Assembly (NCBI GenBank): GCA_002633005.1
Contig: NMRA01000014.1
Coordinates: 1,580,635-1,644,634 of the forward strand
DNA from: Phoronis australis
Lineage: Eukaryota; Animalia; Phoronida
Direction of reading: 5' to 3'
DNA: 64,000 bases
Below are positions 18,189-54,548 of this stretch, piece after piece (position 1 is the stretch's first letter; every line of letters begins with the position of its first letter). The notes under the pieces were generated by a model. It did no database searches. It had not been told where the DNA came from and saw nothing but the letters and a program-made list of their open reading frames with translations. The translations under genes and the position numbers were made by a program.

Positions 18189-19385
18189 TTAAACTGTTGC
18201 CGCTGGCTTGGGATGATATGCTGTTCTAAATCTCTTGAAATTATCCCATAAGTGGCCGATCAGCTCGGCGATCACAATATCGTTCGTGTTGATACTTATG
18301 AGCTTTAGAACAAACACACCGTCTTGGCGAAGGTACCTCTCGGAGAAAACTTTCAACAATTTTGAGTCGTTTCCACCTTTGTAAAAGTTCAACATCACCA
18401 AGTACTTCTTAACGTATCGGTAACGTGTACGTGAAAACAGACCACGTATCCATGGTAATATGCCCCAAACAGTAAGTGCCGCCACCAACGCCATCCAAAA
18501 CCAAAGAAATATAAATATTTTTTCGTTAAAGAGATTGATTGGTAGAGCGCACTGCAAAGTGTATCGATGGATATTCTCCATTCCACCCAAGCGACGTATT
18601 TCGAAGTCACACAAAGTCACGCGTGGAAACCGATGTGACTCTTTCCAGTCAGTACCATTCGTTAACTTCTGTAGCACCTCAATACCGAAAAACATGTAAT
18701 CGGTAGCAAGAAATTTGTTCAAGAGAAAAATTTGCCCAACAGCGTTACATACATATAGGACTTTGATACCGAGATAAACAGTGATGAGGTTGTTGCCAAA
18801 CTTTTTGCCGCAGCCGAGACAAAGTTTTTCACTTAACACTTGTTTGAATTTGGCGCAACAGCCAGTGCCGCGCTCCCGTTGGAAGTCCAAATAGCGGTCC
18901 ATATGTCTTACTACAAACTTTAGCGTCTTATCACGAATGTCGGGATTCAGATGCTCCGAATGGTTGACACACTTAACAATTCCATTAATGTTTAATCCAA
19001 CACGAGAGCAAAATATCCGCCACAGCACGTGCGGGAAAAAGTAGAAGGCGGCCATGCAGGCGAGAATGAAGGGCACCCATTGGTAGTAGGCGACTTCCTT
19101 CTCTTTGCGGGGTGTCAGTGTTTCCGGCACGCCTTTATCCGGCGGTACGTAGTAGGTGTTCGACACCCAACAAATGTTGTTGGCATATTCCTCGTGGTTT
19201 ACTACGAAGTGAGCTGGACACCAGCAGTTTATAGGGTCACCGACATATTGCTTTGAGCCAACGATTATCATAGCGATGACAAGAACCCCGATGGTGTACC
19301 TGTGGTTGAGACGATCAAAGAAGTCGTCGTCATGGTGAACGGTCAACTGAGCTACATTGCTGACGATGTCTAAGAAACTGAACAT
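18189..19385 (-). CDS. inx: Innexin (gap-junction/hemichannel protein, UNC-9-like), 398 aa, encoded in a single constant exon
   Basis: DDDFFDRLNH before TM1, KQYVGDPINCWCP and NICW in EL1, YYQWVP signature at TM2, FPRVTLCDF and QCALPINLFNEKIFIFLWFW in EL2/TM4, YLRQDGVFVL in the C-tail. Acceptor tgtttctatttcAG|A ATG (AG at 19388-19387). Confidence 0.98.
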   Translation of the reverse strand: MFSFLDIVSNVAQLTVHHDDDFFDRLNHRYTIGVLVIAMIIVGSKQYVGDPINCWCPAHFVVNHEEYANNICWVSNTYYVPPDKGVPETLTPRKEKEVAYYQWVPFILACMAAFYFFPHVLWRIFCSRVGLNINGIVKCVNHSEHLNPDIRDKTLKFVVRHMDRYLDFQRERGTGCCAKFKQVLSEKLCLGCGKKFGNNLITVYLGIKVLYVCNAVGQIFLLNKFLATDYMFFGIEVLQKLTNGTDWKESHRFPRVTLCDFEIRRLGGMENIHRYTLQCALPINLFNEKIFIFLWFWMALVAALTVWGILPWIRGLFSRTRYRYVKKYLVMLNFYKGGNDSKLLKVFSERYLRQDGVFVLKLISINTNDIVIAELIGHLWDNFKRFRTAYHPKPAATV

Positions 19386-21986
19386 TCTGAAATAGAAACA
19401 CGAAGGTGGTTAATAGTGACTCAGAATATGTCCATATATTAATTAAATCTATCGAAAATTAGGTATTTATTTATACGCTTTGCTACCTAAGTGTAACGTT
19501 ATTCGGTTGGTGGCTACTTTGATCACATCATTCCATTTGTCAGTAACCCGCTTCTGCTCGCGCCTCGGTGGTGAACGTACAAGAGCATTAGTTCAAAGCT
19601 CCTTTATAGAACCCCGAAATTATGATTATTTCCAACAGTGCCAAGCCTTTAAATTTTCAAGCGGTTGTCATAGTACTTGACTCAATACCACAATGATTGT
19701 CTAGCGAGAATAGTTTTACTGGGAACACAGTTTTGAACTACACAAACGATTAGTCAATTTCTCAGTAAGACTACATTCATGATTCTTAACATACCTCAAG
19801 CGGAAACAATCGTCAGTGTGCATTTAAAGCCCGCATGCGCAACATAGTCCGGTAATAGGCATGGCATTTGCACCTGTTATCATTACCGTTGGGGCTCGCG
19901 AACACCGTTTGACTAATTTCATGCTCAACATGACTCAGACCTCGTGGCGTAATGACATGTATGGGGGTACAGGAAGCTTGTTCTTTCCAGACATCAAGAA
20001 GTCATTACGCAAGTTCCAAATGTCAAGTGAACGACGCGTTTTCAACTTGGAAGATGTTTTTGTGAAGCCCGTCGTGCAGAACAACCGCGTGCTCGTTATT
20101 GCGTTTTCGTTCATTAGTTTGCCATTAATTTGAACTTGTGTAAACGGTGTACTAAGCTACAGAAATGTTGGCACTTTGAGGACGACTTTAAAAAAACACG
20201 TAAGAGACTTGTTCCGTTTCATTTTCGTAGAAAACCCTTATCAAAGAAATGGCAACTTAAACCAAACTAGACGCCATTTCTTAATGATGTAATGTCAATG
20301 CAAAATAAACCCAATTTCATGAACAAAAATTCACTGACAAGGTCGCACAGGTGCGCATTTTAGCTTTTGAGGGTGTCTTCTGGCTGGAAATTGGTCATGC
20401 AAAGTTTTTAGTGAGGTCACAGAAACTCTGCGGAGCAAAATAATTTTGTTTGTTCGAAATAAGGGTTGCCAGAACAGTAGTTTGTATAAAATCATTAATA
20501 AAACTTCAGTACAACAAATCAATTATTCCATGTGTCAAAAAAACCCATAAAACTCGATAGAAGACCAAATGCAGCGATCCCGACGGCGTGAGAAGCAAGC
20601 AGCCTACTCCGCAGACGAATGGAGGCTTATGGAGTCTTTCTGCATACAATTTCTTTCCAAGACAGAATGTTTTGATTAAGGAACTCTCTAAATTATTACC
20701 AAAACTAACACGATGATGCTGGCTTGTCAGTTCAATTAAAGCTCTCCGAAACAGCATATCTATTAGAAGCGCGCGGTAAAGATACAACTAAGCTAGAAGT
20801 ATGAAATTCTCGCTCGAAATTTCTCGTGTATTCGATCACTTCGGACTTAGAAGATAATATAGTATAAATAGAATCATCTTTCGCACAAGACATATCCATA
20901 AAAAACAAACGCTTTTAATTGGAACGGCCGCCACTCACAGATCTACAATTAGACGACGGCTCGTTCACTTTTTTGTCCAAGCTTTAACATTTACCAGTAG
21001 TTTTTACAAAAATCTCTGAACAATATCAGATTATCTCTAGCCATTTCAAGTCTCGTAGCTCCACTGCGTACTGAAATGTCAGGCAAATTTAATGGCGTTG
21101 AGAAATGTTTTCTCAATTTTCTACCTAAACAATCGTGCCCACATGTCACAACAGGGTGACAGTTATAAAGTATCGTAGATGGACAATGACATCACTCGTA
21201 ATGTGTTTTACATTCAGGCTTACGTCGTCATGTGCCAAATGTCAAAAATTTAAGGATTCTCTGCTTCATTTCAGTTAAAAAGACATAATCGAATTTCAGC
21301 GCAAACCGATTCCCAAATGGCTTTTTCTACATGACATATTTTCGCAATAGACATCGAAAGTTATAGTAGAGAATAATTTTCCGACTTTACAACTAAAAAA
21401 TTGGGACCACTGTTAAATGATAAAATTCATTTTTGTAGAATTGATGTAGCACGATACGTATCTTTATGCGCGAGCTGAAATGCATTTGTGTGATTTCTTT
21501 CCATTGCCCACAAGTCTCAAGGCACAGAAATTATTTGTTATCTGAATAAGGAGCAAGTTGAACGGAGACCAATTTCACACATACAAGGAAAATCGCGATG
21601 GCCTAGATCTACAGTTCTTGACGGCAAGAAGCTTTGTGTATTATACCCGTGTTCTTCAATTTTTAAGCGAATTTAGTCCAACGTATTAACCCACACTCTG
21701 CGTGTGAACAAGAAGACCAGAAATTCCAATGATGGATCCATTAGTAAAAAGCTATTTAATGGTGTATTATTACCTCATGTCAGGTAACGGTCTGAACTTG
21801 GTGAATGTTTACACAGACAGTATTAAAAATACGAACACTACATGTCAATTAATGCGGCCGACCTCCGGCATTTTATTAAGCAGGTACAATGTATTTAAAT
21901 AACTGCAATCAAGCGGGCCAACTGCTGCACTCATTACTAATCAATAGGTGAACTACCATAGTGTCCTTCCAACGTCAGACAATCCA

Positions 21987-22138
21987 CATTGGCGGATCTA
22001 GGATGACGCAAGGGGATCACACTTTTCAACGCAGGAAAGTGTCCATGGGGGCTCTAAAAACGGCATGCTGACGGTATTTTTCGTAAAAAAACAACATTGG
22101 GCTCGACTCTTTTTAAAACTCAACCGATTCCGTCACTG
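21987..22138. mobile_element. Short hAT-type MITE relic
   Basis: Ends CATTGGCGGATC... / ...GATTCCGTCACTG; same end motif as 23891-24041 and 38533; no TSD recognisable. Confidence 0.45.
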
Positions 22139-23890
22139 GTTTTCAATAATGTGTTAAGTTTAAGAAATAATAGAAATGAACAACCAAACACGAGACGCAA
22201 AATAGAAGTGTTTAATGTTATGAGATGACTGATAGGATTTAAATAAAAGTTTCGAATGCTGTGTTTTATGCATTGCTCTCCAAAATTTAATCAAAATTGT
22301 TTTCGATGAATACAGGTGCAAAACATTCCAAACAGCGCTGTTGTCGGTATGAGGAGCTATCAACATTGGTCGTTTAGGATTTAACACTCAAATGTTGCAT
22401 AAAACAAAAAAGATGACGAAAGGATAACTTAGATAATTATAACAGGGTGTTCGGAATTTAATCCTAAACTTTTTTATCGCCAAACGAAATTTGTCCATGT
22501 TATTGATACTGTTGTTTTGCTGCGAATTTGCTCTTTTTCCTGAATTTTAATAGAAAGACATGATCATGTAACCCAATTAATGTCAGAAGGATTTGTACAA
22601 AGTCAAAATCAAATTCTGTGTTCTTTCTACTTTCAGAAAATTGATATGCAATTTTACATAATTAAATTCTACAATTTTGTAGATATTTGTCTGATTGCTT
22701 TTACTAGTCGGCAATGTCTCAGACAACCGTAGGTTTAAAGAGGCATTTCGCCGCTGTTTAACTGTCAAAGTTAAATTTGTAACCCGGTGAAGCGCTTTAG
22801 ATTTAATGGCATTACCAAACTCATTCGATCTTGAATTGTTGTCGATTGAGCCGGCAACTCGAATAACAGGCAATGCGTAAATGCGTACATTTTTAAAGTC
22901 ACAAGTCTAGTGTAGGCCAATCCCAATAACGTTCGGAGCGTTTTCCTGAGCCGCTGGTGGAAAGGGGAGTAGAATCCTCTCACGGTAAGCAGAGATATTT
23001 CAAGGTAGCAAAAGCCCAAATTCGGTTTTCACTTTTTAGCCAGCTAAACAAGGCAAAATGCAGCTTGATATTTAAGTATACGAAATAAACGACAACATAT
23101 TTGGTGAGTAAAATCATTTTCAGAATATACATTATGTATACAATCAGATGATAATTATATAATTCTTGCATGAAGTCAAAATAAGGATCTACTGCTATGT
23201 GTAAAAAGTCGAGAAATGGCATCAAAAGCATTTAGAAATTGTTTCCTTAATGTCTCAATTATTTGTTGACATTTTAACTTCATAATGCGTCTGTGTTGAC
23301 TCTACAACCAAGGTATGAGAGCACACCCTACTGTTCTATTAGTGGATCAGACTCTACTGGCATGTCAAACGAGACTAGATCTAGTTGTGGTTAGCTTTAC
23401 AAACTTACTCAAAATTCAGCGAAATTTGTGAAATGAGAATGACTCAACCCCCACGCAGATGTACTCCGTCTCCCATTCATATATGTTTCTAAAAATATTC
23501 TTCACGGAGATTCTTGGCTCCATATGTCAAATGGTCGCCATGTTTCCCGCTCCTGCTAATTGTCGTAATGAGTGACGTTAAAACAGCGCCTGTGAGTTAT
23601 GCCATTAGGTGAGTCCCGAAAGCTGTGCTTGAAATTATTGAGAGCAACATAAGTGGTGCACGAATTATATCAGGTTACAATATAAACGACCGGTTTCTTA
23701 AAATAGGGTTAACATTTGAAAGTAATTATCAGTCATATTATTTACCTTTTTCTTTCACCTGGGATCGCAGAATAAGCTGATTCATGGACAAATACGTCAT
23801 AAAAGAATGATAATTTCATCTTGTTAACCTACATTATCGTTCTGAAGGAACAACGAAAGATTCACTAAAACTATTTCAAGAGTCCACTGA

Positions 23891-24041
23891 TAGTGGCGGA
23901 TTAGAGGGGGCCAAGGGGCCATGGCACCCTAAAATTCTCCCAGACTCCATTTGGCAGTTCGGGGTGCGAATGTCTGACGGGCAAAATCCTGGCTAATACA
24001 CTCGCCGGGCCCCCCAACTCAAAATCCTGGATCCGTCCCTA
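23891..24041. mobile_element. Short hAT-type MITE relic
   Basis: TAGTGGCGGAT...GGATCCGTCCCTA termini with a G/C-rich ggggccatggcaccc interior; TSD not recognisable. Confidence 0.5.
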
Positions 24042-26692
24042 GATAGCTAGATGAACTACTGCAAACCAAAACAGTTGCTGCCTACATTCGTCACAAACGA
24101 GTTTTACTTACCCTCACTGTTTTGAACAATTTGATCTCTGATCTCTTCCTTACGAAGCTGCATGTAACTGGTGGAATTTTAATAAAACAAGCACGTTTTA
24201 CTTTGTAATTTAGAATTCTATGAACCATGTGTGTGTAAGAATTACTTTGAAAACGACGGCCATTCTACAAGTTGAAATGTAACGTTATCGCAAGTTTGTT
24301 TTCGCCGTTAAAGTGCACAGAATATTTCCGTCTGTTCCAGCTTCTTCAGTGATTAGATTTGTCTGTGCGGATGAGTCGGAATGTTTTCTTCCATATTGCC
24401 AGAACGCACATTCAGCGTGAGCCCAATTAGTGAAAAACGAGTTTATCACACGAATAATTCGTCAGCAGGTGTTTTCCATTTGACTGCTAAGAATTGAAAG
24501 TAACACCGCGAAACGTCACCTAAGTTTCCCCATCAGAGACACACATGGTGTTTACATGTCACACAAGCAACCGGACACAAAGCGGGTTCACAGGAGACGT
24601 TGCATAGGCAGACATAGGGGAGACATGATTAAATAACACCGTCAGCATGCTGGCACGGTTTTCGAGGACATTTTCCTTAAAAAATGGCTGGCCCTTACAA
24701 CACCCTAAACCCGCCAGTGTGTCGTTGCCGTCACATAGATAATCCAACAGAGAAAGGATTCACGTGGTGTCAAGGACCCGAAAACAGGGATGATTGATCA
24801 CGACGTTTTCATGTCACACAGGTACCCCGATACAGGGCGGATTCACATATGTTGAGCTACCAACACACGGTTTATAAAACATGTACCCTAACACAGAAAT
24901 CATTAAGAATGGTTGTTTTAAAGAGACTCAGTAGTAAGTCAAATTTGTTCCGAATTAGATAAAGAATTTTCACTGTTTAATTTTTGAATCTCCGGCAGTC
25001 AGCCAGAAATTCATTTGCGCAGTTTGACCTTTGAAAAAAGTAAAATAACATACACGCAGATGGAGATGGCTTTAAAATATTCTCATCTTTTGATGTTTCA
25101 AAACTATGTCGATGTTTTCCGAGTAAATGAACAAAGTTTATAGGTATATTGTGCGCTGTTTCAGCGATGTGACAACTACTTTGAGACATCTCGTTATTTC
25201 AGGACGAGGGCGAGTGTCACGTGTTTTGAGTTAATTTTGCGACTGCTACGAAAATTCGAGTTGTGAAGTAAGATAAGATAACAGTTCTTATTTTCTATGG
25301 TTAAACTGTGTTCAAAATGAAGATCACGAGTGTTTTGTACGTTGATAAAATTCTTCATTCTTATTTAATCTTATTTTGAAATTGGCCATTTTCAGCAGCA
25401 CTCACTATATAAATGTAACTTACTTGAAGTACAGGAAATAGCAGCCACAGATACAAGATATCTTGCAGGCATCACTAACAAGCTGTTATCATTAAAAGAA
25501 TGATTCATTAAATTGTAATATTTTTGTGTAAACCAAGACCTAATGAGAGAACAAGTAACAAACCGTTAGGTATAGAAGTAACTTACTGACAGATAACCAC
25601 TAATCATACACTGTTATAACGGGAAGGCTATTTATGTTCTTATACAGACGATCAGAGTCACTGAAGGGATGCTAATCTATCGACTATAGATCAAAAAAAA
25701 AAAGAACAATAAACAACAACAGCAACAAAAAAATCAAAACTAGCACGGTTCTCTACTTGAGGATGTACTACATTGAGTCACTGTGGACACATGTACGCAG
25801 GTTGAACAATTAGTTTCTCGTCCCTGTTTTCAAACATTAAACAAGACACATACAGATTATGACCATTTATGTGCAACTTTTCGTATTATTTGTGTGATTG
25901 TTATTAATATTTAAACTGGAATAAAGAGCATATCTTGACGAACTGAACAGGTAATAACGATTAGGACAACTGTTTCCATTGTATCGATCAGTGGCACACG
26001 CATATAAAACAATCTTTTTCACCAGGTCTTATATTACTTTCGCCCTACAGGCATGTTTGTTATAGATTGAAGTTATTGGGCTCAAAGTCAGGAATTGCAT
26101 GACTCGTAACCACTGAAACAAATATTGGTTCGACAGAGCTGAAGGTTATTTCACCGTTAACCGTTCAGCTTGTTCGTTTAGTTATTTTGGCTTAACAAAT
26201 ACTGTACCTGTAATCTTTTTTGAGACAAAAAAACGTACAACTGAATTCACACTTTGTTTTGCCATGGAATACTCCGACATGTTGGAATCGTTGTTCGCAT
26301 AAAAATGTTGTAGAAAATTAAATCTCTGCAACTGTCTCTCTCATTTTGCTTGGATGGAAGACATATTGCCAGCTTAAAAGCACAGCTTTAAAAGGATAAC
26401 CAGAACTCAAGAAAGTCTGGGCTCCGATGGCTCGTTCGTTACTGATCCGGTAGGCCTGCAGATTGTCGGTTAGTTAGTAGCTTAAATGTTACAGCTCAAT
26501 GATCCGTAACTAGACAACTAAACGTAGTAGCGAAGTAAAACTTTGTGTTCAGCTTGACTACTGTACAACAACAGTTTCAAAACTTTCACGAAGTTGTACC
26601 TGTAATAGATTTAACAATTAAAACACATTTTAACGTCAAGAGCGTTGCATCGAAAATGTCCCGATGCGTTTTCCATTCGTCTTTCAACTCAC

Positions 26693-26835
26693 CCTGTAGA
26701 TGTTCGCTGGAAGAACGACTCTTCCTCAGATAAAAAACTGATATGGTTTGTTGGTTCCAGACGAATGTTGGGATACTGTGTTTCTTTTGTTTGGTCACCT
26801 CCTGTTCGCCGTGTTAGTCGAGCAATGGGATCCAT
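26693..26835 (-). CDS. Candidate innexin variable first coding exon V1
   Basis: gttATGG start; open for 47 codons + 2 nt: MDPIARLTRRTGGDQTKETQYPNIRLEPTNHISFLSEEESFFQRTST-GG|GTGAGT. GG plus A(19386) gives Gly in frame with the innexin ATG. N-terminus resembles V3 (MDAIARIL). Confidence 0.72.
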
Positions 26836-26929
26836 AACACGTTGGAATCATTCCGACCGAAATAAGTAGGATGAATCGGGGCAGATAAAAGGAACCCACT
26901 TAACCGCTTGACAAAATCTTGCAGATGTT

Positions 26930-27070
26930 TCGAACGCCAAAGCACGGACTGCTTTCTTTATATATTCAAAACAAGGTATCGGTTGATTACCGAAAGCTAA
27001 ACGACACCAGGTTCGCGCCGACGTTTGTTCGAAACACTGATTGGCGATGATGTCAGAATAGGTCCCGCCT
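26930..27070 (-). promoter_or_regulatory. Pol II promoter candidate for V1
   Basis: On minus, in order: GC box GGCGGG (27069-27064), TGACATCA, CCAAT (27044-27040), TATATAAA (26964-26957), about 120 nt upstream of the V1 ATG. Confidence 0.6.
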
Positions 27071-27950
27071 TCCCCAAACCGCATGACTGAGAATCTTTGA
27101 AATTGAAAGCATCGAGTTCAGGGTAATAGAAAAGGTATAAGGTTGCCAACCGCGCCTCTGAAGATCTGTCCGTTTCAATACAGGCAACACTGCTTATAAC
27201 TATTTAAACTATTGACGCACATATGCATTCAGTTATCCGGGTTATCTGCTACCTGACTGTTCAGTCTATATTAACTATATGCCAGTATCACTTATGAATA
27301 ACAATGCTGAGAGCGCCCGTTGAACTGGCAAAGTACTGTGAAACAATGTAGGTACTACCGAGCGTTCCTCATGTAAGGGAACCTGGGCAGCTTGCTATTC
27401 GTTATTAGTAGATTGGGTCTCGTTTTGGTGTATGTTGTTGTTTATGCTTTGAAAAACAAAAAAATAATATCCTTATATCTGCTTATAAGTGATGAGACGG
27501 TGCTTTTTACTCAGCTCAAACCAGATTCCCTGAATGATTCAGTGGCTCGATTAGCCATACAAATCTGGTTAGATGCATTTCGGTAATTTATTTACATCAG
27601 CAAGTATGTTAATATTATTGCCCGAATGAACTTAATAACGTACTAAACATCTAATTACTTCATTCTAATTATTAACACGTACATGCAATAAGTCATGCCT
27701 TGTTTAGGAAACTCAAATATTATACAAAACGGGCAGTGCATTCTACGACAGGAATAAACACCCTACTTCCACGCTTTAGTCAACCCCTTTCACTTCCGTT
27801 ACCAACATTACTGCGGTGTTAATGACATTGGTGCTGTCGACATGCTGACGTTTTACGTTAACCCCAGGGATCCGTTTTATCAGCGGTCATATGCCCTTGG
27901 CGTCACGTTATGACGCAGCGACGGCAGCAGCGGCTTCGGGCGACTGCAGC

Positions 27951-28059
<109 letters not shown>

Positions 28060-34000: not shown

Positions 34001-36732
34001 CTGGTCCTCAGTCTCTGTGTCACTGATAGCAATTGCAGAGCCATAGCTATTGATCCCACACTGCATATCGAAGTGATCATTAATATATGTGCAAGGATCA
34101 TTACAGGTGTTTATGAGCATAAACTACGAACAAATGTCAATGTTATACTTAAAAACGTACCCGCATATGCATGCTAAAGAATCTATAATATGAGGGGATT
34201 TCCCTCAACTGTTTATTTACATCGACCGCTGCCGTAAGATACTTGCACAATGTGAAAAATGGCTAATTAAGCAAACAGACTTAAGATTACAAAAGAACAC
34301 CTAAAACTCAGAGCCTTGATCTAATGACGATTGATAATCATTTTCCTAACAAGCTAACAGACTCGCAATCTATTTGCCTAGTTATACATATTTTATGAAT
34401 ATTTTGAAACCACTCAAACTATTTGGATCGATTTAGAGACCTTACATTACAGCTGCGATTGTTTTCTCAACACGCCAATAACGTCAACGCCTGGTGCTTA
34501 TTTAATCAGCCTCCCTATTGATTTCCCGCGCTTTTTGTAAGGTGGGGCAGCTAACAGCTTTAGTTTTCATTTGGCCAGTCGAGTTAGTGAATAATGACTC
34601 GAGCAATCAATACAGACAATAGAACTCTCAAGTCAAACTGTGATATTTGCAACACATCCTAATGTGTAAAACATACATACGAAGACCGAGCACAAAAGTT
34701 TTTTTTTAATCACTCCAACCAGCAACAAAAACGTATTTGCACAATCCACACATTTACAAACCAGACTTCCTATTTGTACAAAATGGTCCCCTCGTGTAAT
34801 TAATCTTTGAAATAAGAATTGCAGACATTGTAGCACCACTGTCATCGAATTACGTCGGATACGGGGTTGCAATAGACCTTCGAAGAAAAAATGTGTTACG
34901 TAATTTTAGTTGCTATGGCGGTTTGTACAAGTCTGTCTTCGGGTATCTTGACCGGATGAAACAATAGAGGGCTCTCCTCCTCCTCCTCAGAAAACGGTCT
35001 ACGGCCAGGGAAGTGATGCAACTAAATGCAGTCGAAGGGACAAGAGCGCTTCCAGCTGTAAGCCACCAAGAGAAGGGATTGATATCACTTGGGATGACCT
35101 CGCAACAGGGACATGGGAGACGCGACACACGGTGTTAAAAAACAAATGGAATATGACACTAAGGACTGATACAGACGATTGTTGTACGATTGTTGACTTT
35201 CTTCAGTGATATCATACGTGATGTTAGGTTCTTTAATTCTATAATTACTCATATAAGTACGAGTTGTCCTTTTTACTTCGCGCCAGGTTGTTTCCCGAAC
35301 TACAACTGTTTGCGCTTCAGCTGACTCCACAAACTGTCGACAGCTGGTGCAAATTGACGCATCGAATTATTGAGACGGTTAGTGCTCCAAAGATCTCACA
35401 AAATATTTGAATTTTAGGATTATGAAAGTTGTTTAACAGGGCACTATTCTTATTCAACAAAATTAAAGCCTCCATGTAACTGAATTAAAGTGGTTGCCGA
35501 ATTTACGAAACTGTAAAGCTGACAGAGGTCGACTTATTTTCCCATTGAGGATGACATCTTCACTGATGAGAAAAGGCTGCCTTTCAAATGGGCCCCGAAG
35601 TAACATTATTGCTTTGCACTATTTTGTCGGAAGCTGCACTTGTCCAGGCCATGTTCGCAGAATGGGAGGAAATCATTAATTTATGACGGCTTACGAGGAC
35701 GCACTTCTCCTATCGGAAGTTGCCTTCATTGTCACGATCGCTTGAGCAAATTCCACTGTACAAAACGCACTTTTGTCGAGTTTAGCAGAAATGGCCCACT
35801 AACCGGTTCATTTCACAAACCCTTCCCCCGTCATATATCAGTGAGCACCAGGTTCTATGACGTAACACAGTACGAAACGTTTTGTTGCTCATTGTAATTC
35901 CAGATACCTCACCTTCCGTGTCACCCTCATGAAGCATCAGGTGCATAGCAAGGTTGCTCATCACCGTCAGATGTCACCAGATGAAAACTTTTGCCCTCAC
36001 TAGGATGACCTTTCCCTCATCTCAGAACTCATAATAACAGTACGATTCCTCACTACCTAAGCAGTGTTCGTTCATTGAAATTGACGCAGTAACACTTGCA
36101 GTGTATAGGCTACACTCATTGTAACTTATGTCATATTTACGCGTAGACTTCAGAAAACACAAGTAAAACAAAAATATAATGAAAACGCCGAGTTTAGCAA
36201 GTCTATGAAAAAGCAAGTTTTGATTAAGGCCACTTACCGCTATAAAATTTACATTCTCTTGTTCCATACTTGGTTTAGAGGAACTCATCGACAGTTAGTT
36301 GTTTCTTAAAACCAAGCTCATAAAAAACTCCCGGTAACATCTATTTTGACTAAGCAACAAATGAAGACCAACTTCATAACTGTATGTTACCTATATAAAA
36401 CTTGATTTTGACTGAAGGCATGTGTTTAATGTCGCTTTAATTAGGCTGCAAAATTTCATGATTTGATTTTTGCCATCTGATTTTACGTCTGGAACGCAAT
36501 GCCCTCTTTTTGTAATCTTTTTTATTCCACTGACGCTCATCATATCACGTTTCTTAATATCCTTAGAATTAATTTTAAAAATAGCCAGAATATAAACGGC
36601 GCCCAATGTGTAGCCACAATCTACAGGCACTGCGGAAGTGGATACAGTGAACCACGTGATTCCTAACTGCACCGAGTTCCCTAAGATCGATCTTGATTCG
36701 ACATCATCAGATAGTCCCCTTCAATGACTTAC

Positions 36733-36830
36733 CCGCCTAACCCGTGAAATCCGCCTCGTCTGTGATGATGGTGATAATAGCGACGGTCAAAAACATGGAA
36801 ATTGTCTCCCGGTCTCCAGTGGCCGTGCAT
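36733..36830 (-). CDS. Candidate innexin variable first coding exon V2 (His-rich)
   Basis: gctATG start; 32 codons + 2 nt: MHGHWRPGDNFHVFDRRYYHHHHRRGGFHGLG-GG|GTAAGT. Phase 2, in frame with the innexin exon. Shares H[WY]xPxDxxH[VI]F...RYxH...GF.G[LI]G with V3. Confidence 0.68.
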
Positions 36831-36954
36831 AGCTTTTGAACCAGAGAACTCGCATATAGAACGTCTTCAGTCTTTTAACATTTTAATGGTTACAATTCTG
36901 CTATTTGCTAACCACGTATTGCCTTTTCTCAGTTGTACTCTTGTAACATGCGGG

Positions 36955-37080
36955 AAGTGATCTGCGCATTACGGCGACCTTGTGGCTGGTTTTATAACTC
37001 ATCGATTTCATCCCTTCTCAATATAACAGGTCCACGCGTAACAGTGAAATAAAAGAAAAACTTTTAACCGCCATTGGCTG
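36955..37080 (-). promoter_or_regulatory. Pol II promoter candidate for V2
   Basis: AGCCAATGG (CCAAT 37077-37073), TATAAAA (36996-36990), Inr-like TCACTT (36960-36955). CCAAT-to-TATA spacing is within 1 nt of that at the V1 promoter. Confidence 0.6.
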
Positions 37081-38532
37081 AGATTGAGGACAATTGCTGT
37101 ACACGTGACTTTATTCTTTGTTGCGGTTGGTCGATAGAGAATCTTGGAGCAGGTAATTAGCCATGAGGGGCAATTGTACACTGAAACAGCCGTCAACGTA
37201 CTAATAACAATTATACACTTATTGAGAGCTTTGTGGGCCACGTTGTGTATACATAAATAATACATGAATGACTAGAAATTTTTCAATTAGCGAACTGTTA
37301 CGCAGAGATACAAATAGCTTTAAAATTGGCGTTTGGAACCATCAGGACGCGAACGCTGACTTTTTCGTTTAATTTCGCTTTTATTTTATCCCGGCTCAGT
37401 TATCCTGCCACAATCTCCACTGGCATCACATAATGTTCTCTATTATGAAAACAAAACGGAAAAGTTCGCGATAGATGTTAGCCAATACTCAGCCCTGTTT
37501 AAGGGTTAGTTTACCGACTAGATAGATGTCAGAAAATTTTTACATGAGGTTTTGGCAATGTTTGGTTCAGTGGACGTCTGGATTTCACACACACGCTTTC
37601 CTGGTATACACGTACTGTCATACTCGTGAAAATTTATAGTTTTTACTGTGATGTGACTACATGTATCAGTGACACAAGGTAACTTTACTTGTATAAGACG
37701 ATTTTCTTCGCGTTTTAAGCAATTCACGTGAAAAGCGTTTGTTCAAACCCCGACTCTCACGTTCTACGTTACGTCGAAGCTGTAAACCATGTACAGGGGC
37801 TGACTTATCACTGAAGGAACACTGTGCTTATCACTTCCTCTTTGCAGATATTCTACACTTTCGTGAACAGCTTGTTTGCGAGGGAACATTTCTCTCACCA
37901 GAAATTGCGCTCGTTGAACGACAGAAAGTGATGTGAGTGTGAAAAGTACGAGATCCCGACGGCCGAGCGAATAGGCCCATGCTAAAATAGCGCAGCACAA
38001 CTTCCAATACATGGTAATATCTCGTAAAGATTTTTGCGCGATCTAATTTTCGCGGCCCAGTTTCCAGTGACACCGATAGATAGCGTTACCGCCGTAGTCA
38101 GACACAAAAAATTCACCTCTTATGCCCCAGTAACAAAAAGTCTCCAACCTCAATCCTATGTGAGTGTGCCACCAAAATAGCCATATGGACCGACAGTGGG
38201 GGTGATGATCTGGAGATTATCGGCATCAAAAATTAGCAATCGCCGCTTTGCGCAACCAGGGCGATTTTCTTAATCGTTCAATCATCTACACATGTTAAAG
38301 GTACCGTATCGCGCGGCAAAAAGAAAGTTTTCTGAAATGAGCAGCTACTGTACCCCCGCAGTCACAGTCTAACGTTCTGCCGCTGACTCAGAGCAAAAAT
38401 CCGCTCGTTAAATGACACCAAACATTCAGAATGTGAATGTGAACATAAGCACGGAAGTCTAATAATTTTTCACAGTACAACCCAATTATCGATATTTGAT
38501 ATAACCATTCGAAAATTCTTAGAAAACCGTGG

Positions 38533-38720
38533 CAGAGGCGGATTTAGGATATCATAAGGGTGCCCAACATTTTGTCTCGTAGATAATAGCGCAAAGCGCA
38601 ATAGTAGAGGCGCGTAGTGCCGAATGGGGAAGGTCGGGAGGGGTTCCTCGCTTCCGCCCAGACGAAAATTTTATTTTTGCCCCTGCAAACAAGCATTTCC
38701 TTGATTTCTGAAGTATAATC
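38533..38720. mobile_element. hAT-type MITE relic (5' part)
   Basis: Begins CAGAGGCGGATTTAGG, like the 21987 and 23891 elements; the other end was not identified. Confidence 0.35.
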
Positions 38721-41124
38721 AGCTCTCGACGGCTCTACTATGGTCAGGTGATTAAAAAATTGGAAAAATTGTAAAATTTCAAGCATTCAATCGCACAACC
38801 TAGTAATCAGAGCGCGCGTGCTCTTCGATTGCGCCACCAAGCTTCCAACTACAATACTTTGCTAAAGACGTATTGCTAAAAACTATATGTGCCTGTCTAT
38901 GGTCCACGACGTTCGCGCGCGAACCTGCTTCTTTCCGTTATGTTTATTTCACGCTTTGTAATTTGTGCAACCAGTTCGTAGCAAAAGTTGTGTTTAAAAC
39001 GGTCTTCAGTTGCCCCATTGTTCGTGTTGGCATGAACCACGCGCTTGCTTTGCAAATCGTCTCAATTTTAATGTTTGACAAAGAGAGAATTATGAGTTTC
39101 TGATTCACTGAGGCTTTGATTAAAATTAACATGTTACCAGCAGCTCCTGTTACTTCATCGTCACTCAGCTTCCGTTTTCTCTAAAAAAAGTGAAGTAATT
39201 TTCTTCATTGCAAAGTCGAGCAGACGACGAAGCGGATTGGTAGTGCACAGCGCCACTACCGGTCGCTTGATATATCGTGACCGGGAGCGGCATTAATTAG
39301 CCCTAGTTACCGTTACGATAGCACCGGTTCTCTGAATCCGGTGTGAAATTGGGTCTGAGCCCGCCCCTCCCCACACGTGCACACGAACTATAACTCCACA
39401 CATTGTCAAATTTGTTTCGGCCGTATAATGTTACAGTAATTACTAGGGTTAATTAATAAACTCAATATTTCCTCACACTTTTGCTACTTTATTTTTTTGG
39501 GGGCCGCCAAGGGGGGGAGGTCCCCTGGGCCCCCTACACTTTATTTGGTGGCCGCCAAGGGGGGGTTTAAAGCCACCTATGCGGTCACGGTGATCGTGAT
39601 GTCGTTTTCGAGGTTAAACGTCTAAGATTTTGAGGGAAACGATGGAGACCGACTGAAGCCAATTGAAACTACTAATATGCGTAGTGCCCATGTTACTCCG
39701 GCGAGATCAAATTGTACATTAGGTAATTAATACCAACTAATGTAATTCTACACACTGGCAATTCGAAAATATAAACTGAAAACTCAAACATACCCACATA
39801 TGGGTATTTAGTATTACGAATGTCAATAGCAATCACTCTCCAACATGCTTGCCGGGAATTTAGACAAAGCCCGTATTTACCAAAATATTGAGAAACCAAA
39901 TCCCTAATCGGTTTCCCACAACGTATTCATGATCTCCACATTATTGTCATCTCTGGCTCAACAGTAATCACCTCTATTTGTGACCCAATGCCAGATCTCG
40001 GGCACTCCAGCGAATCTTTCACCGGAGAATTCAGTAGGATAACAGCTGTGCACATGTAATATACAAATAATTAACATCGAAACGCTGATTCCATTACAAA
40101 AATGTCCACATCAAGTTCTTTTCGTTTTCCAGCCTTAAATTGATTGTAATTTTGAAATTTCCGAGCTAATCCTAATTATGAAAAGTGAAACACAGTCTGA
40201 TAAAAATGATATATTTCTGTTAAGCTTCTCCTGCTTTCGCAGGTTGTCAGCTAGAAAAAGCTACGCTTGTTAATGACACGCACTGTTGCCTTTAATCATC
40301 TCACGAGAGCTACCTGAGCCTTGTGGAAGGGGAATTTTCCCATGAGGTGAATCTCCTATCGCCACGTCTTATAAGTCATTGCCTACAGTTTTGATTACTT
40401 TAATGTCTTCAAAGAGTTGGTTTTAGTTTTTGGATTACTACGCCCACCTCTATAACCCCATGGAAGATCTTTATAGGAATCGATGGTGTGCACAAAAATC
40501 AACAAACCAACAGATGAGTTAATGTTTTGGAAAATTTGATTATTGCTGCTGTGTCACCTAGTGAAAATTGTAGTTATTAGTCAGGGGACCACTACGGCGG
40601 CTCGACTTATTAGTCTCATCAGGCCCTCTGGCGGCTGTATACGAAATAAAGTGACATTATCGGCGAGAAAAGTGATTTTCTGAGATCAGCCGCAACGCAG
40701 GATCAAATTCACATCCTAAGCGGTCGCCGGTCCATCACTCTGATGGGAATGACAGGTAACCCTTACTCGAACGCTGGAATTGAATTTTAATCGTGTGTAA
40801 GTAGCAACGTCGCCGACGGGGATTTTTCAATGAATCACAGACAGCAATGAGAATACGCCATGTGCAATTAAATCCCATGAAGACACCGTATTTTGTTGTT
40901 TTATAGTTCTGGTCAAAGTCAATAACCTCAAGAAGCCTAACAACGACCTCAAAAATGCTTTTTTATGTCGCAAAGTTGATAACGTCCCATTATATGACAA
41001 GGTCGAGAATAAAAATCCCCATATCTAGTTCCCAACTCATTTACAGTCCACCGAGCTGAGAATGTTAAAAAATGACTAGGATGCGCCTCTTTGAAGCATG
41101 GTTTTACTCAAAGGCTTCGCGTTT

Positions 41125-41185
41125 AGGGGCATGCGCATAAATGCGTGAGTGCGCGGTAACCGGAAGTGTTAGTCCATCTTTGAAC
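41125..41185 (+). promoter_or_regulatory. Cluster of housekeeping-type promoter motifs
   Basis: NRF1-like GCATGCGCA, ETS CCGGAAGT and YY1-like CCATCTT within 60 bp. Confidence 0.35.
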
Positions 41186-41672
41186 TATCAGGAATAATGT
41201 ATTCTTTTTATGTGTAACTCATACTAGCCACTCTTTGGTCACTTATCAACAATGACTCAATGAAATTTAAGGAAACCAACATAACACGCACGCATGACCA
41301 GTCCAAACCGAAATCAGGAGCACAAGACGGATATTCGGTAAGGGAGATTCCATTGGTAACGACATACTGCAGATGAGGAGTGTTTTAGTTGTGAACCTAA
41401 ATTGTACTGCGTCCAGTGGTAAAGCGTTCACGTATTGCATCGTTGTTAAAAAAAATAAAAAAATAGAAAATAAAGACCTTTAAGTACACGCACAAATAGG
41501 TCTAGCCCACTTAAATGATTTTAATTGAAATAAAACGATATAGATAGTCAGACAGGATGGTGTGCTTAAATAACACAATACCTGCATTTGACATTACGAC
41601 ACGTATAATAGTTATTTACGTTGGATGTCAGAGGCAGCTGTGAATGCAGACGTGTTACTCAATCATGCTCTT

Positions 41673-41730
41673 GTCAGTGGCCAAGTGGTCTAAGCACAGA
41701 TTGAAGACCTCACGTGCGTATGTTTAAAGC
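41673..41730 (+). repeat. Possible decayed tRNA-derived SINE head
   Basis: A-box-like TGGCCAAGTGG followed by TCTAAG; B box degenerate; no cloverleaf. Confidence 0.25.
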
Positions 41731-44533
41731 AACGTTACTACGTCATCTCTTGCAACACAAAGTCATACCGATACCCTACAACAAGACGACGACGAATTTA
41801 TACTAACGCGCACACGTAAGAAGGAAAGACCACGAGTATAACATTCAGTGCATTAGTGCTTGGATTTGACATTACTTGTCCTCATGAAAAACAGCTCACT
41901 TCGGACAAAATACAGATAAACACAGTATCTCTGCTGAACATGAATCTTCATGATTGCTCAACTTGACATATTTTTTAATAGTGCATGGTGTTAGTTAAAT
42001 TCAGTCAAAATGTGACAACGAGAAATCTCCTAAACTGGTGCTCCAGAAGCGAGTCGCCATAAAGTGAAAAGGAATTTCTCGACTTCCAATCAATGGAAAC
42101 GACCGAATGTGTCCTCCGCTGTTCCGTATACCAATGACAACCCGGAAACATCAAGATATTACAATTCTACTCCGTTCAAACACCGCCTATGCCCTCTATT
42201 TCTTAGAAAATCATATTATATCAGACGGAATTTTACGAAAGCAGGAGACATTTTTCTATACTCGCTGACCATTCGCAATGCTTTGACTTTATTCCTGTCG
42301 TTTTCATGATTATGTTCGACGTCATTGTAGGTGCTTCAAGTCAGATGTCATTAAGTCTTGTACTAGTTAGTGCGTACTTTGTTCAGATTCTTGAAATCAA
42401 ATACTGAAATGTTGACCTGTGGCTATATTCACCCGCACAGGTAAGGAATGTACGACAATTACACTATTGCGTAGCCATTTTCCGATACGGTGGCGACTTA
42501 CGTAATGACGGAGAATTATCATATTCTATGGGCACCGCGTTTTATGGGGCCATTTTTAATCAAAGTGTTCAGGGTCAAGAGTGCGGGGCCTCACAGAGTA
42601 AGCGATGCTCAAAGGAGTGTTGGCATTGTAGTGCTGCTCAAAGAGCTTGCACACAAAAAGCGGTCCCCTAAAAGTGCAGAGACTCGCCAAGGCGCCTTGA
42701 ATTTACAGTTTGGATTTTTGCACTGTGAAATTACATAGCGGCAAAATCTGCAAAACTTAAATTTGCGCAAAATGTATATATTTAAGAAAAGTAGCATTCT
42801 TGATACTATAACTGTCACGTGACGAGAGCAGGGCCTCTGACTAGCGGCGGTGTGTGAACACCTGAAATAATTCAATTCCACCAACAAATTGCCCAGTAGA
42901 CACACTGTCTTCGTCATGCAGAAGCGGTACAAGTACTTCTTGTCCCTTTCATTACCTCCGTTAAAAGGAAGTGAGGCTCAGAAAACATGTTTCAAAACGT
43001 AAAATTGACGGTTTTCACCACACTTCCTTACCCAATGCTCAACACAACCCCACGTTAGGTTCTGAAAGCAAATTTACTACACATTTCAAAAATGTGGTCA
43101 CAACTGATGGCATCCGATACAACATTGCTACAGGGGCCTTTATTTTGAAAAAAGTGTATTTACAGCCGAACTAGTGGACTTTTGTCATTCCCAGCATGTT
43201 CACAAACACATGTAAACCAGATGGACTGAATCCNCATTTAATTAAAGTACACATCAAAACTACTGCCAAACCTGGCGTCCCCAAAAATCAATTCATAAGG
43301 AGTGTATATTTCCTGCGGCTACAGTCTAACTCTGTAGATCTTTCTCAGCAAGCGATCCCGAAGACTTGTCTCCCCTGGACCGACGGTGTCGCCACTAGCG
43401 TTCGGCACAATAGTGCTGAAAAAGGTGTGCGGTGAGTGGTGAAAGTGTGAGAAGAACTGAAAAAAATATGCCGAACAAAAAGTGCTATAGGACAGTATGT
43501 CGTAATGGGCTGTCACAACAACCAGAAGGAGTTGTACGCGTGAAAGCAACCAATATGCAGTCAACATGACAGAAAACGTCAAGATTGTCCGTGTTTGCCG
43601 CCGTTAAGATGTTTGTATTCCTAAGAAAGAAGCCAATAAGCCGGAGAGAATGGTTACGTTCAATAAACAGAAAATAATACAATAAAATTAAATAATTTTC
43701 TGTAATTGAAGAAACGTTGGGTCAAATGAAACTTTTTGTTTAAATTACGATGTTGACATTTCTCAAATATTGATGAAACTGAGTGAGCCGTGACATGTAG
43801 TGGAGCCGGCCGAACCACAAAATAAAAAATAATATGAATAATGACTTCATTTTAACAACACCAAGTGGTTCAAATCGCTTTTTGATATTGATTTACGTCA
43901 TTTCTTTTTATATGAAAGTGAGGTTTTAAGTCAGCAAACTGATATCGTACGGGGGTGGCGATCAGGTACAATATTTTCCCACGCCTAAAGAAAAATAACA
44001 GTTTTAGGTACCGTTTTATGAAGTTTGTGTCCAGATAATCTTTTTTAAAAGTATCATTATCATGACGTCGGTTGTTAGTGTTAAGTTTGAATATTAGGGA
44101 TCAGTTACACATGACACGTTATCGGCATCTGGAATTGCGGTTATTCAAGACTAGCAGAAGAGTCATATGCAGTTTGTTTTTCTCACTACTGTAAAATTTG
44201 TGCATGTTTTGGGAGTTGGGAGTATGACGGGTAATTAAATAACTAGTGAAGGTACTCATATTCAAGTGTACTGTTAAAAATCGAACATGCAGGTAAGATC
44301 TATCCATTACTTTGCTTCTTGTCGGCGACTCTTCTCGTCTCCGAATCACAAGCCTGAAGCAGACGCAATCTTCTCAATTTGATTTAGTTTGGTAAACAGA
44401 GCCCTGCAATATTACAAAATACTTACTGATAGCCAGTGACTTTGGTAATGAAGTAGACTGCGACTCTGCCATGATTTAAATGAATTAAATATGCTTCTAC
44501 GCTATCACTGGTGCTGAACTGCATTGGTTTCAG

Positions 44534-44923
44534 TACACACGCTCACAATGCTACGAAAAGTGGCACTGCCGAATGTTGTTCAACACGACTTCTCATTGGT
44601 TAAAGTAATGAAGCCGACGTCATAACATTGAAACGTGGGATACCCTTTCAGTTTATTGTTACGTAGTATGGTGACCACCATGAAATTGAATAGTTGCAAG
44701 TTAATAAAACGGGCAGTGATCGAAGTAAAGAAAATCAAGGTAACCCCGATCCAGTGGCTTAAGCCCAAACAAGTATTTTGCAAGAAGACGCGTGCAAGGG
44801 TGGCGATGTGATCGGTATACTTCCGACCAAGGCATGCGCATTGATGCCCACACACGGAATTCCATGTGTCGTCAATCACATTTACACAGGGCCTCAGTAT
44901 AGGTGGCGCTGTGTCAGCAGATA
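44534..44923 (+). mobile_element. Non-autonomous AcademH-like element, copy 2
   Basis: TA...TA termini; 9-bp TSD TGGTTTCAG (44525-44533) / TGGTTTCAT (44924-44932); contains WLKPKQ...GGDVIGILPTK remnant. Confidence 0.75.
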
Positions 44924-46861
44924 TGGTTTCATCGCCTTAAAGTCGCGTGATCACGTGATCACGTAATGGTGGTCTCTGTATTTTCATAGGTCAATAGCTA
45001 GATGGCGATAGAATATTTGGCTCACAGAGCTGAGGGCCACCTACTGTATATCAACTAACAATAAGTCTTAGGTGGTGATTTTAGTCAGTGGGCCCTGAGC
45101 TGTAGTCGAACATTTGGCGAGTACTTTCACCTGACAATTCACTTTTTCGAATATGACTAAATAAAGTTTTTTCAAAGCATTATTTACAGTGTTACTACAT
45201 TTTAAGTTGCCAACTTGCTGTAGAAACATTTTACACGGTTTCAACTAGAGGGCGGTGTGAGGTTGTTTATTATGTTCTGCTTATTTAAGATGACCTGTCG
45301 AAAGGGCATGATTTGAGGATAAGTTTTATAGAAACGGCTTGCTTTAAATTTCATTCTATAGTGACTTTAACGAAAATGAAACCGAAAGAGGGTCGTAAAA
45401 TTTTCTGTGTGCACTGAGCGTAACCGCAATTACAATGTTTATGTGGAGTCATAAGAAACAACAATTAAAATTAAAAATGTCATTGACATAAAGTACTGGG
45501 AGAATGGACACAACAACAAGGAGAACAGGGCCAACTTAAAAGTTGGTTTCCGCAACAATTACAATCATTTCAGAACATAACTGATAATTTTATATGAGTA
45601 CGTGACCAATGTAATACTAAACGTTGGCTGTTCGTCTTATACAGTGTGTGCGATAGGTATGACCAACAGCACACAAATGAACTGCATCAGCCTTTATCAA
45701 ACCGCAAACAAAGATCTGATGGTGTACGTTTTACTTAGTAGATTCTTTCGAAAAATGGAATGAATAATTATTCATTTTCAAACATGTTTGAAGAACGACG
45801 CCACTTGAAACATTGTTTGTCATGAATAACTGACACCAATTGTATTTTCAACAAATGAAAGGTGCCAATTCCTCATTAATTTTACAAAAAAGTCAATTTT
45901 TTAGTAATTGTTATCACATCTTCGTATACAATTGACATATTGCAACATAGCTTTTGACTAAAATGGAGAAATTTAGAAGTTTGATTTGAAATTTCAACAA
46001 TGGGATGAATGCTGAACACTATTCAATTTGTTGGCTTTTAGCACGCCTCATAATCATAAACATGGAATTACACAAATCTATGTTCCATATTACATATATT
46101 TTCACTGGGCTCACCCAAATTGTTTCAAAAGTGTTACCTATAGATTGTAAATGACTATTTACATCAATGTAGAGAAGGACACTATGAGGCTAGGAGAAGA
46201 TTCTGAAGTAGTCGTCGAGTGGATCGTTGTTTGGATTTGATTACTTCTGGAAAACTGTTTGCTATTGATGTCCATGTTATTCGTGCCGGATGGCTTGCAG
46301 GCAGTGAGTTGCATGGCGACACCATGTGGCGACATCATGCGTTAGGACAGGGTAACACCTTGATACACCTGTGTAAAGTTGTCGTCACTCAACCGTGGCG
46401 TTATCGCTGACCGCGTCAAAACACCGGCCGAATTTATCTCTGAGCGTATGCCAAGTGCGTTTTACAGCCTGAATGTTTAGACTATACGACTGTGAGTTTA
46501 ACTCAAGGAACCTTTTTGAAACGCGAACTGTTCATTCAGGTTTGAAGTCCAACGAAAGACGAGTGACTCACGTTCGTTTAGTTTGGGAACAGTACAAGTA
46601 ACTGTCACGTGGTCCATACCAGGGCGTACAGAGGCTGAACACAGATAATTGGTTTTCCTCTTACGTAATGAAGCACAATGGTAAAATAAACTGGAAATAG
46701 CGAAGTTGTTGGGAGTAACTCTCGTTGGATTTTGTGTCTCTTTGTGTAAAAACATACTCGAAAAGGATGACGTTGCTTGTCAACTAATATAAAACCTAAC
46801 ACGAATAGAACATACATTTAACAAATATCTGAATAATTTGGCAGCAAACCCTCATGTAGAC

Positions 46862-47020
46862 AAAATTTGTTGAACAGACAACAATGTTCACGATTAATTT
46901 TGTCAACGATTTTCGCTCGAGCTTTTTGCATCTTGATGATCGTCAACGATGAAGAAAGCTAGAGCGAATGTTCGTTGAAAATTATTAATCGTGAACATTG
47001 TTGTATGTTCAACAATTTTT
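46862..47020. repeat. Imperfect palindrome (~160 bp), probably the core of an old MITE
   Basis: ttgttgaacagacaacaatgttcacgattaat ... attaatcgtgaacattgttgtatgttcaacaa with near-continuous pairing to a central gatc; weaker symmetry extends to about 46797-47092. Confidence 0.85.
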
Positions 47021-47405
47021 AACCTATATCTGTGAATGTTCTTAATAAGTTTTATTAGATATGAGATGGGAAAAATAGCTTAACTCGTGTTTTTTTCTAC
47101 GCTGAATCTAATTCAGCTAGCAGTGAACAAGTATGAACAATAATTTGTAGTCGACTGTGGTTAGTCAGAAAACGCTCAATGAACTGTCACTTGTTTTTCG
47201 AATAACTAGTATATTGAACCTAACCATAGGAAATTTTGGACTAGCACTTCATAATATGTGAGTACAATTTTTGACTGTAGAACAAGGAACACATTCTCAA
47301 AATAGAGCATGCCCACGTCTTGTACGCACAGGGTCACACGCCTGTAATGGTCAAATCCGACTGTTTGTTTCGTTCACCTAGGTTATTAGAAAATAGATAA
47401 CTCAC

Positions 47406-47566
47406 CCGATTCCAAAACCCGTTCCGTGGGAGTAACGTTTCTCCGTGTCCCTGAAAATATGACTGACGTCGGCGGGTGTGTAGTGCGCCGAGGTCGTGGG
47501 GGTAGGAGCTTCTCTACCGGCCTGTGCTCGTGCCTGCCGAATTAATATCCGGGCAATCGCATCCAT
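47406..47566 (-). CDS. Candidate innexin variable first coding exon V3
   Basis: ACCATGG Kozak context; 53 codons + 2 nt: MDAIARILIRQARAQAGREAPTPTTSAHYTPADVSHIFRDTEKRYSHGTGFGI-GG|GTGAGT. Phase 2, in frame with the innexin exon. Similar to V1 at the N-terminus and to V2 in the C-terminal half. Confidence 0.75.
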
Positions 47567-47589
47567 GGTACATCGTTGCAATTTTACGG

Positions 47590-47832
47590 TTGCTGAGTCA
47601 AAACTTGTTCTTAAGTGACGATGACTAAGGTTAGACGATCAGACTCGATGTACCTGTGGTAACGTGTACCAATGGTTTCCAAGGTAATTATATTTTAACC
47701 AACTTCTCCTATGTCCTGTCCAGATGCGCCATGAACCCAATTTGTCAAAAGATTTTATCCGCCGGATGTAAACCATTGCAGATTGCTGGTCTCAATTTTT
47801 GGAGTGTGACGTCAACCAAACCCCGCCCCCTG
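47590..47832 (-). promoter_or_regulatory. Pol II promoter candidate for V3
   Basis: GC box GGGGCGGGG (47829-47821), perfect CRE TGACGTCA (47807-47814), AP-1 TGACTCA (47594-47600). The GC box + TGACRTCA module mirrors the V1 promoter. Confidence 0.55.
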
Positions 47833-54042: not shown

Positions 54043-54418
54043 TACCCTCTGACTCAGCGCCACCTATACTGAAAAGTGTCCCTGTGCCGGAAACATGATG
54101 AACAACACACGAAATTCCGCGTGTGGACCTCAGTCCGCATGCCTTGGTCGGAAGTATATCGATCACATCGCCACCACTTGCACACGTCTTTATGCACTGC
54201 ACTTGTTTGGACTTAAGCCACTGGATCGAGGTTCCCTTGATTTTCTTTACTTCGGTCACTGCCCGTTTTAATAAATTGCAAATATTCAAGTCAAAAATGG
54301 TTTCAACCAATGGGAATGACTGAGTGTTATGACGTCGGTTTCATTACATTAACCAATGAGAAGCCATATTAAACAACATTCGATAGTGCTACCTTTCGTA
54401 GAACTGTGAAAGAGTGTA
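54043..54418 (-). mobile_element. Non-autonomous AcademH-like element, copy 3 (inverted)
   Basis: TIRs TACCCTCTGACTCAGCGCCAC / GTAGAACTGTGAAAGAGTGTA; degenerate 10-bp TSD ATCATGATTC / ATTATGGTTC; IQWLKSKQVQCIKTCASGGDVIDILPTK. Confidence 0.75.
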
Positions 54419-54548
54419 ATTATGGTTCATAAATAATCGATGGAATTCATTCTGCGTAACTAACACTGTGAGTATATTTTCAGAGGCTCTGTACTATTGC
54501 TGTGGTTATATAAGATTTTCTTTCGTAATACTTGATTTTTAGATTTAA

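Follow-up and report, generated by a model that had tools for sequence, protein, structure and literature searches.

Innexins with several N-termini have been described in a nematode and an insect, and several transcript variants of one innexin in a mollusc, and the gene investigated in this study, an innexin encoded on the minus strand of a 64-kb window of the Phoronis australis genome, shows a related organization (the window is the whole stretch of DNA analysed, 64,000 nucleotides (nt) of contig NMRA01000014.1, and all positions refer to it). UNC-7 of C. elegans has ten isoforms (UNC-7a-j) in six N-terminal groups, with unc-7b having its own promoter and first exon and UNC-7b conferring rectification together with UNC-9, a property that depends on charged residues of the UNC-7b N-terminus (PMC7455501). 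In Drosophila, ShakB(L), ShakB(N) and ShakB(N+16), latter being a longer version of N, originate from the single shaking-B locus and are linked to rectifying synapses (PMC2663713, PMC5412853). The nearest published case concerns Limax valentianus, where four nervous-system transcript variants of one innexin, 9x1-9x4, were cloned (PMC8049302); its text gives neither the site of the differences nor the exon layout, and the variants may share the layout described here. In the window, a single exon encodes an entire 398-residue innexin, and at least two distant upstream exons, termed V1 and V2, are spliced onto it; with V3, which is predicted, their number is likely three.

The locus resembles unc-7 in combining one core with several N-termini (there 24-168 residues ahead of the first transmembrane segment, TM1), including an unextended form, and in sharing the docking loops. 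Different N-termini supplied by upstream exons to an unchanged core are evident in RNA reads for V1 and V2 and are predicted for V3. In contrast to unc-7, where function has been tested, a role in gating is predicted here; moreover, a single exon holds the whole core, and no extension is nested within another. Both genes are likened by their layout, and orthology between them is not established. Shaking-B is of a different design, as ShakB(L) and ShakB(N+16) differ up to TM2, which replaces the pore helix, TM1 and the first loop, whereas no such replacement through TM2 is found in the Phoronis gene, with its N-terminal helix, TM1 and both loops in the constant exon. The locus is not a new kind of system. 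Its arrangement is already known, being present in RefSeq models of Lingula and molluscs and tested in unc-7 (PMC7455501), and the novelty suggested by an earlier note on this DNA, which knew of no description in this lineage, is not supported. In the full-text literature, which excludes most subscription papers, we found no description of variable first exons on single-exon lophotrochozoan innexins and no paper treating the extension layout as a general innexin design; the extensions conserved among molluscs are likewise undescribed there.

The constant part of the gene consists of two features:

18189..19386, minus strand: constant exon, coding part, with a leading A, the N-terminal helix, four transmembrane helices, both extracellular loops and the C-terminal domain
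16957..18188, minus strand: 3' untranslated region (UTR), far end approximate, from stranded depth in RNA run X4 and contigs of run X1

The minus-strand open reading frame (ORF) at 18189-19385 encodes the complete innexin of 398 residues in one exon, whose acceptor at 19386 follows a pyrimidine tract with an AG and leaves a single A ahead of the constant ATG. Its translation matches the Pfam family Innexin (PF00876) over residues 20-383 with an E value of 1.4e-99 (333.9 bits at a cut-off of 25), and C54, C72, C259 and C279, two cysteines per extracellular loop, the YYQW motif (Y100-W103) and P118 of the PxxxW motif are invariant in 82 aligned sequences. The product is an intact innexin core. 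A structure model of this core, with a predicted local distance difference test score (pLDDT) of 87.8, contains a helix at residues 2-14 and finds as top Foldseek match INX-6 (5h1q, E 8e-14), with its large-pore four-helix fold and N-terminal helix. The protein is predicted to form gap-junction channels or hemichannels. Within the 3' UTR, the bin 17584-17979 is overlain by repeat-derived reads. Thousands of reads from elsewhere are attracted by short repeats of high copy number at 17700-17930 and 23927-24040. A TATA-like box is located at 19475 on the minus strand, 90 nt 5' of the acceptor, with slight stranded depth in X4 (0.53) at 19564-19959, for which a proximal promoter and unspliced RNA are both possible sources.

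The following exons are located upstream:

26693..26835, minus strand: V1, coding exon part of 143 nt, adding 48 residues (product of 446 residues), with a 7306-nt GT-AG intron to 19386
36733..36830, minus strand: V2, coding exon part of 98 nt, adding 33 residues rich in His and Arg (product of 431 residues), with a 17346-nt intron to 19386
47406..47566, minus strand: V3, predicted coding exon part of 161 nt, which would add 54 residues (product of 452 residues)

All three start with ATG and end in phase 2 at GG/GTRAGT (the slash marks the exon end), and their donors are 10.0 kb (V1-V2) and 10.7 kb (V2-V3) apart. The extensions amount to 7-12% of the whole protein (33-54 of 431-452 residues) and are hydrophilic, devoid of a hydrophobic stretch and, in V2 and V3, of net basic charge. 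The anatomy recorded in the earlier note, with the whole channel in one exon behind a single A, three ATG-initiated phase-2 exons with common donor ends, products of 446, 431 and 452 residues and a spacing of about 10 kb, is thus confirmed in all parts.

Splicing was followed in four RNA runs, of which X1 consists of contigs (small word share) and X2-X4 of raw reads originating from one study, paired with the genome by species label rather than by individual and of unstated tissue. The region 16000-27850 was examined with all four runs and 36300-48200 with X3 and X4 at 96% likeness, with about 19% of each run read over the latter interval. Stranded reads of X2-X4 establish transcription of the constant exon from the minus strand. 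The junction of V1 (19386/26693) is spanned by 14 reads in two of the four runs, five in X3 (5 starts) and nine in X4 (7 starts); it is absent among the joints listed for X1 and X2, where coverage stops short of the 5' end. For V2, four X4 reads break off at 36733, with 30 loose letters that are identical to window positions 19357-19386; V2 therefore splices to the same acceptor as V1, a junction defined by the loose ends of reads and not by a listed joint. No depth is found over V2 in X3. Both exons are present in the same bulk sample, X4, and the reads therefore do not demonstrate the cell-type-specific use proposed in the earlier note. No joint of V3 to V2 is found among those listed for X3 and X4, in agreement with the proposed layout.

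V3 shares the features of an active exon in its open frame of 53 codons, canonical donor, matching phase and ACCATGG start context. On the minus strand of 19501-64000, three of the five RG/GTRAGT sites close an ATG-open phase-2 frame of at least 30 codons, compared to 0.045 expected and to none of 200 shuffles that gave three, although this statistic is post hoc, as the pattern was derived from the finding itself. With looser donor patterns the excess becomes smaller (3 vs 0.61, p 0.035; 6 vs 3.1, p 0.10). Other donor candidates on the same strand include a candidate non-coding first exon with a strong donor at 51203, a TATA box at about 51412 (210 nt upstream) and a leader devoid of ATG, which would yield the plain 398-residue form. 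A donor candidate at 51715-51743 with an upstream TATA box, where 51715 closes a 9-codon phase-2 frame, has a leader overlapping a repeat, and at 48754, also with a TATA box upstream, all upstream ORFs are closed.

A motif scan predicts a promoter at each upstream exon:

26958..27069, minus strand: predicted V1 promoter, GC box and cAMP response element (CRE)-like site TGACATCA (27069-27048), CCAAT at 27044 and TATA at 26964
36990..37077, minus strand: predicted V2 promoter, CCAAT at 37077 and TATA at 36996, from the motif scan only
47688..47827, minus strand: predicted V3 promoter, GC box and TGACGTCA (47827-47807), TATAA at 47692

The distance from TATA to ATG measures 129 nt in V1, 166 nt in V2 and 126 nt in V3. 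The 64 kb contain exactly two cases of a GC box followed 7-8 nt on by a CRE-like TGACRTCA, at V1 (27069) and V3 (47827), with 0.01 expected for a pattern that was set after being seen; the CCAAT and TATA motifs of V2 are frequent in the window (123 and 35 matches). Each upstream exon is likely driven by its own promoter, and we infer that V1-V3 are first exons whose extensions are translated. When the three peptides of the window and five of Lingula are compared by 28 pairwise shuffle tests, V2 and V3 resemble each other (p 0.001), whereas the likeness of V1 and V3 (p 0.03) is confined to the first six residues and is lost (p 0.30) upon omission of the first and the junction residues, and that of V1 and V2 is not significant (p 0.41). 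By the GC box-CRE pair common to V1 and the peptide likeness to V2, the unobserved V3 is therefore tied to both active exons. At least the pairs V1/V3 and V2/V3 appear to go back to ancient duplications of a cassette of promoter and exon that have much diverged; in self-BLAST, the 10-kb units share no long stretch of similarity. The proposed relatedness of peptides and exons is partly supported, for V2-V3 by the peptide and for V1-V3 by the promoter element and the first residues, but not for V1-V2, and the proposed separate promoters are partly supported by the predicted motifs at each exon. A GCA microsatellite (38 copies, 27946-28059) precedes the start codon of V1 by 1.1 kb.

Collectively, we consider it probable that a single lophotrochozoan innexin gene uses distant upstream exons, spliced to an exon encoding the whole channel, to equip its product with N-terminal extensions that likely alter gating while leaving docking unchanged. 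Alternative upstream exons, likely with separate promoters, would be joined to the constant exon, as seen for V1 and V2 and predicted for V3, which we presume to be used in tissues or stages outside the samples. The resulting subunits are predicted to carry a flexible extension of 33-54 residues ahead of the pore-funnel helix. In a model of Lingula isoform X1, which serves as stand-in, residues 21-75 show a pLDDT <50 and the pore-funnel helix is intact at 79-91. In the octameric hemichannel of INX-6, the pore is narrowest at a constriction that the N-termini create (PMC5146279). With the equivalent helix located in the constant exon, the extension would therefore be fused to the pore-funnel helix, attached to its first residue as predicted from the models, which makes a change in gating or rectification likely. 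The description of the extensions as cytoplasmic N-terminal tags understates this place. Since the docking loops are all encoded by the constant exon, they are common to all isoforms, as proposed before. As working model we use UNC-7, where several N-termini are combined with one core and one of them acts as a charged voltage-dependent plug.

A similar layout is found in other lophotrochozoans. The best among 1456 matches are about 50% identical and originate from Lingula, Owenia and molluscs, and the cores of RefSeq relatives show the same degree of identity (about 50%) to that of the window. RefSeq contains isoform sets named 'innexin unc-9(-like)' in Lingula anatina (XP_013415386-92), Haliotis, Patella, Magallana, Pomacea, Biomphalaria and scallops, which we compiled from 10 clusters of at most 15 listed members each. 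These isoforms are automated models, compared as proteins alone. One of three core starts is carried by 107 of the 113 proteins, the other six being fragments or divergent. Isoforms of one gene have an identical core and differ in nothing but the N-terminal extension, of which the listed records show 5-8 for each gene: five in Lingula on one 398-residue core, with Gly at four of the five junctions, eight apiece in two Haliotis genes and seven in Pomacea. The 49 distinct junction ends of molluscs, in which orthologous exons are counted repeatedly and a few entries look like intron read-through, are rich in R (12), W (9), G (9) and M (7, together 37) and contain no K, which fits a phase-2 junction whose first constant base is G. 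Strong conservation is seen in one long extension between abalone and both oyster and scallop (BLOSUM scores 196 and 193), and others are conserved across gastropods. In most listed forms of one mollusc gene the core starts with Leu, and the start codon must therefore come from the variable exon. We conclude that this layout is widespread and, among molluscs, subject to selection. The conserved mollusc extensions include a His-rich class conserved across gastropods. The extensions of Lingula isoforms X2 and X3 are clearly paralogous (score 97). As sole likeness to Lingula, V2 weakly resembles isoform X1 (p 0.002-0.013 among 28 pairs), and in a comparison of V1, V2 and V3 with 47 distinct extensions of relatives the best value, p 0.005 for V2 and a His-rich abalone peptide, is not significant after 141 comparisons. 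A quick tree places the window gene with long-branched Rotaria rows within a set containing Lingula, and a second quick tree, upon omission of Rotaria, beside six Lingula genes with a Shimodaira-Hasegawa-like approximate likelihood ratio (SH-aLRT) of 88; neither placement is firmly supported.

Several observations weigh against this explanation. The junctions are covered by few reads, and X2-X4 all belong to a single study. Sequence searches found no close relative, and an SH-aLRT of 88 does not suffice to call the Lingula gene an orthologue. Aligned as DNA, the three units of promoter and exon show no significant similarity (p 0.17-0.77), and V1-V3 could be internal exons with further exons 5' of them. 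The start contexts of V1 and V2 are weak, that of V3 being optimal, and since an upstream ORF also overlaps each ATG, the extended forms may be minor products. Finally, depth over 47019-48200 is zero in both runs examined there (X3 and X4), and of the three junctions to 19386 that the earlier note had proposed, those from 26693 and 36733 are found in reads, while none is seen from 47406.

This last result bears on the alternative that V1 and V2 are live isoform exons and V3 a silent or decayed duplicate, or part of another transcript, which we regard as unlikely. It draws its strength from the absence of V3 depth in X3 and X4, while X4 yielded nine junction reads of V1 and four of V2. However, only two bulk samples of unstated tissue are concerned, and with about 19% of the reads covered, zero depth is not proof of silence. 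In addition, V3 has retained its open frame, donor, phase and start context, shares a promoter element exclusively with the active V1, and there is no other long ORF nearby on either strand.

The start codons of all three exons are overlapped by upstream ORFs:

26795..26851, minus strand: upstream ORF at V1, 18 codons, out of frame, beginning 16 nt before the V1 ATG and overlapping it
36787..36855, minus strand: upstream ORF at V2, 22 codons, out of frame, beginning 25 nt before the V2 ATG and overlapping it
47514..47573, minus strand: upstream ORF at V3, 19 codons, out of frame, beginning 7 nt before the V3 ATG and overlapping it

They share one relative frame (p ~0.003 with randomised 30-nt leaders, post hoc), and the next ATG past each stop is that of the constant exon, 55-109 nt further. 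The lack of an intervening ATG was considered as evidence and rejected (p 0.14). Were they translated, a single mRNA could yield extended as well as 398-residue subunits. A broader proposal, in which ancient expandable phase-2 cassettes of lophotrochozoan innexins would add gating peptides to the pore-funnel helix and the overlapping ORFs of the present gene would set the ratio of extended to plain subunits, each promoter leading to mixed octamers with a tuned number of plugs, appears doubtful to us; if true, the upstream ORFs would act as a translational dial for the rectification of electrical synapses.

The same ORFs are compatible with the view that the upstream exons mainly serve as alternative promoters and leaders, whose ORFs divert ribosomes such that nearly all protein is of the plain 398-residue form, with the extensions as tolerated by-products. 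Provided with an ATG of its own, the constant exon encodes a complete channel, the overlapping ORFs are found on all three exons, and the mostly dissimilar extension peptides match no family in a Pfam scan; a comparison of V3 with longer proteins (18 candidates) did not score either, which is weak evidence. We nevertheless judge this explanation improbable, as three long frames in coding phase behind strong donors exceed chance and the start context of V3 is optimal, and as in relatives extensions are conserved between gastropods and bivalves and one mollusc core requires its extension for a start codon.

Clustered protocadherins and UGT1A also splice tandem variable upstream exons to a shared constant sequence, the variable exon encoding the specificity-determining bulk of the protein. 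The likeness drawn to these systems extends to the bare layout, but here the variable part is confined to 33-54 residues, 7-12% of the protein, on a complete 398-residue channel with constant docking loops, and the putative promoters harbour no CTCF-like site. A protocadherin-like identity code, in which stochastic, CTCF-looped choice among tandem paralogous promoters would provide a tag that decides which cells couple, is very improbable: the tandem order, even spacing, common donor and phase, partial paralogy and enrichment of CTCF-like matches in the window (11 vs 3.7 expected) would fit, but there are three exons only, their 10-kb units lack long similarity, the loops that decide pairing all reside in the constant exon, and none of the 11 matches (at most 2 mismatches to the consensus) is found in the 400 nt preceding V1, V2 or V3. 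Near-perfect CTCF-like matches are located at 55592-55605, 61177-61190 and 45242-45255.

The gene with alternative N-terminal extensions, which we favour, offers a compact RNA-supported case of one gap-junction gene that likely makes several differently gated channels still capable of docking together. Automated annotations of brachiopods and molluscs contain this layout without remark, with some extensions conserved from snails to bivalves, and it provides neurobiologists whose recordings are made at identified electrical synapses of molluscs with concrete isoforms to consider for rectification.

The remainder of the window contains traces of mobile elements. A Myb/SANT-like domain fragment at 6763-7071 on the minus strand (PF13873, E 3e-10), with a diverged second copy at 63075-63288, is likely transposon-derived, this domain being presumably associated with Harbinger-type transposons. 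At 59200-59700 on the plus strand, a frame with several stops reads like what we take to be the decayed end of a hAT-type transposase. Inverted-repeat elements resembling miniature inverted-repeat transposable elements, and related copies, are found at 14389-15116, 46862-47020, 54543-55175, 44534-44917 and 54049-54418. The segments 1-739 and 1558-2310 are 95% identical duplicates around a gap of 198 N, which probably reflects an assembly or haplotype artefact.

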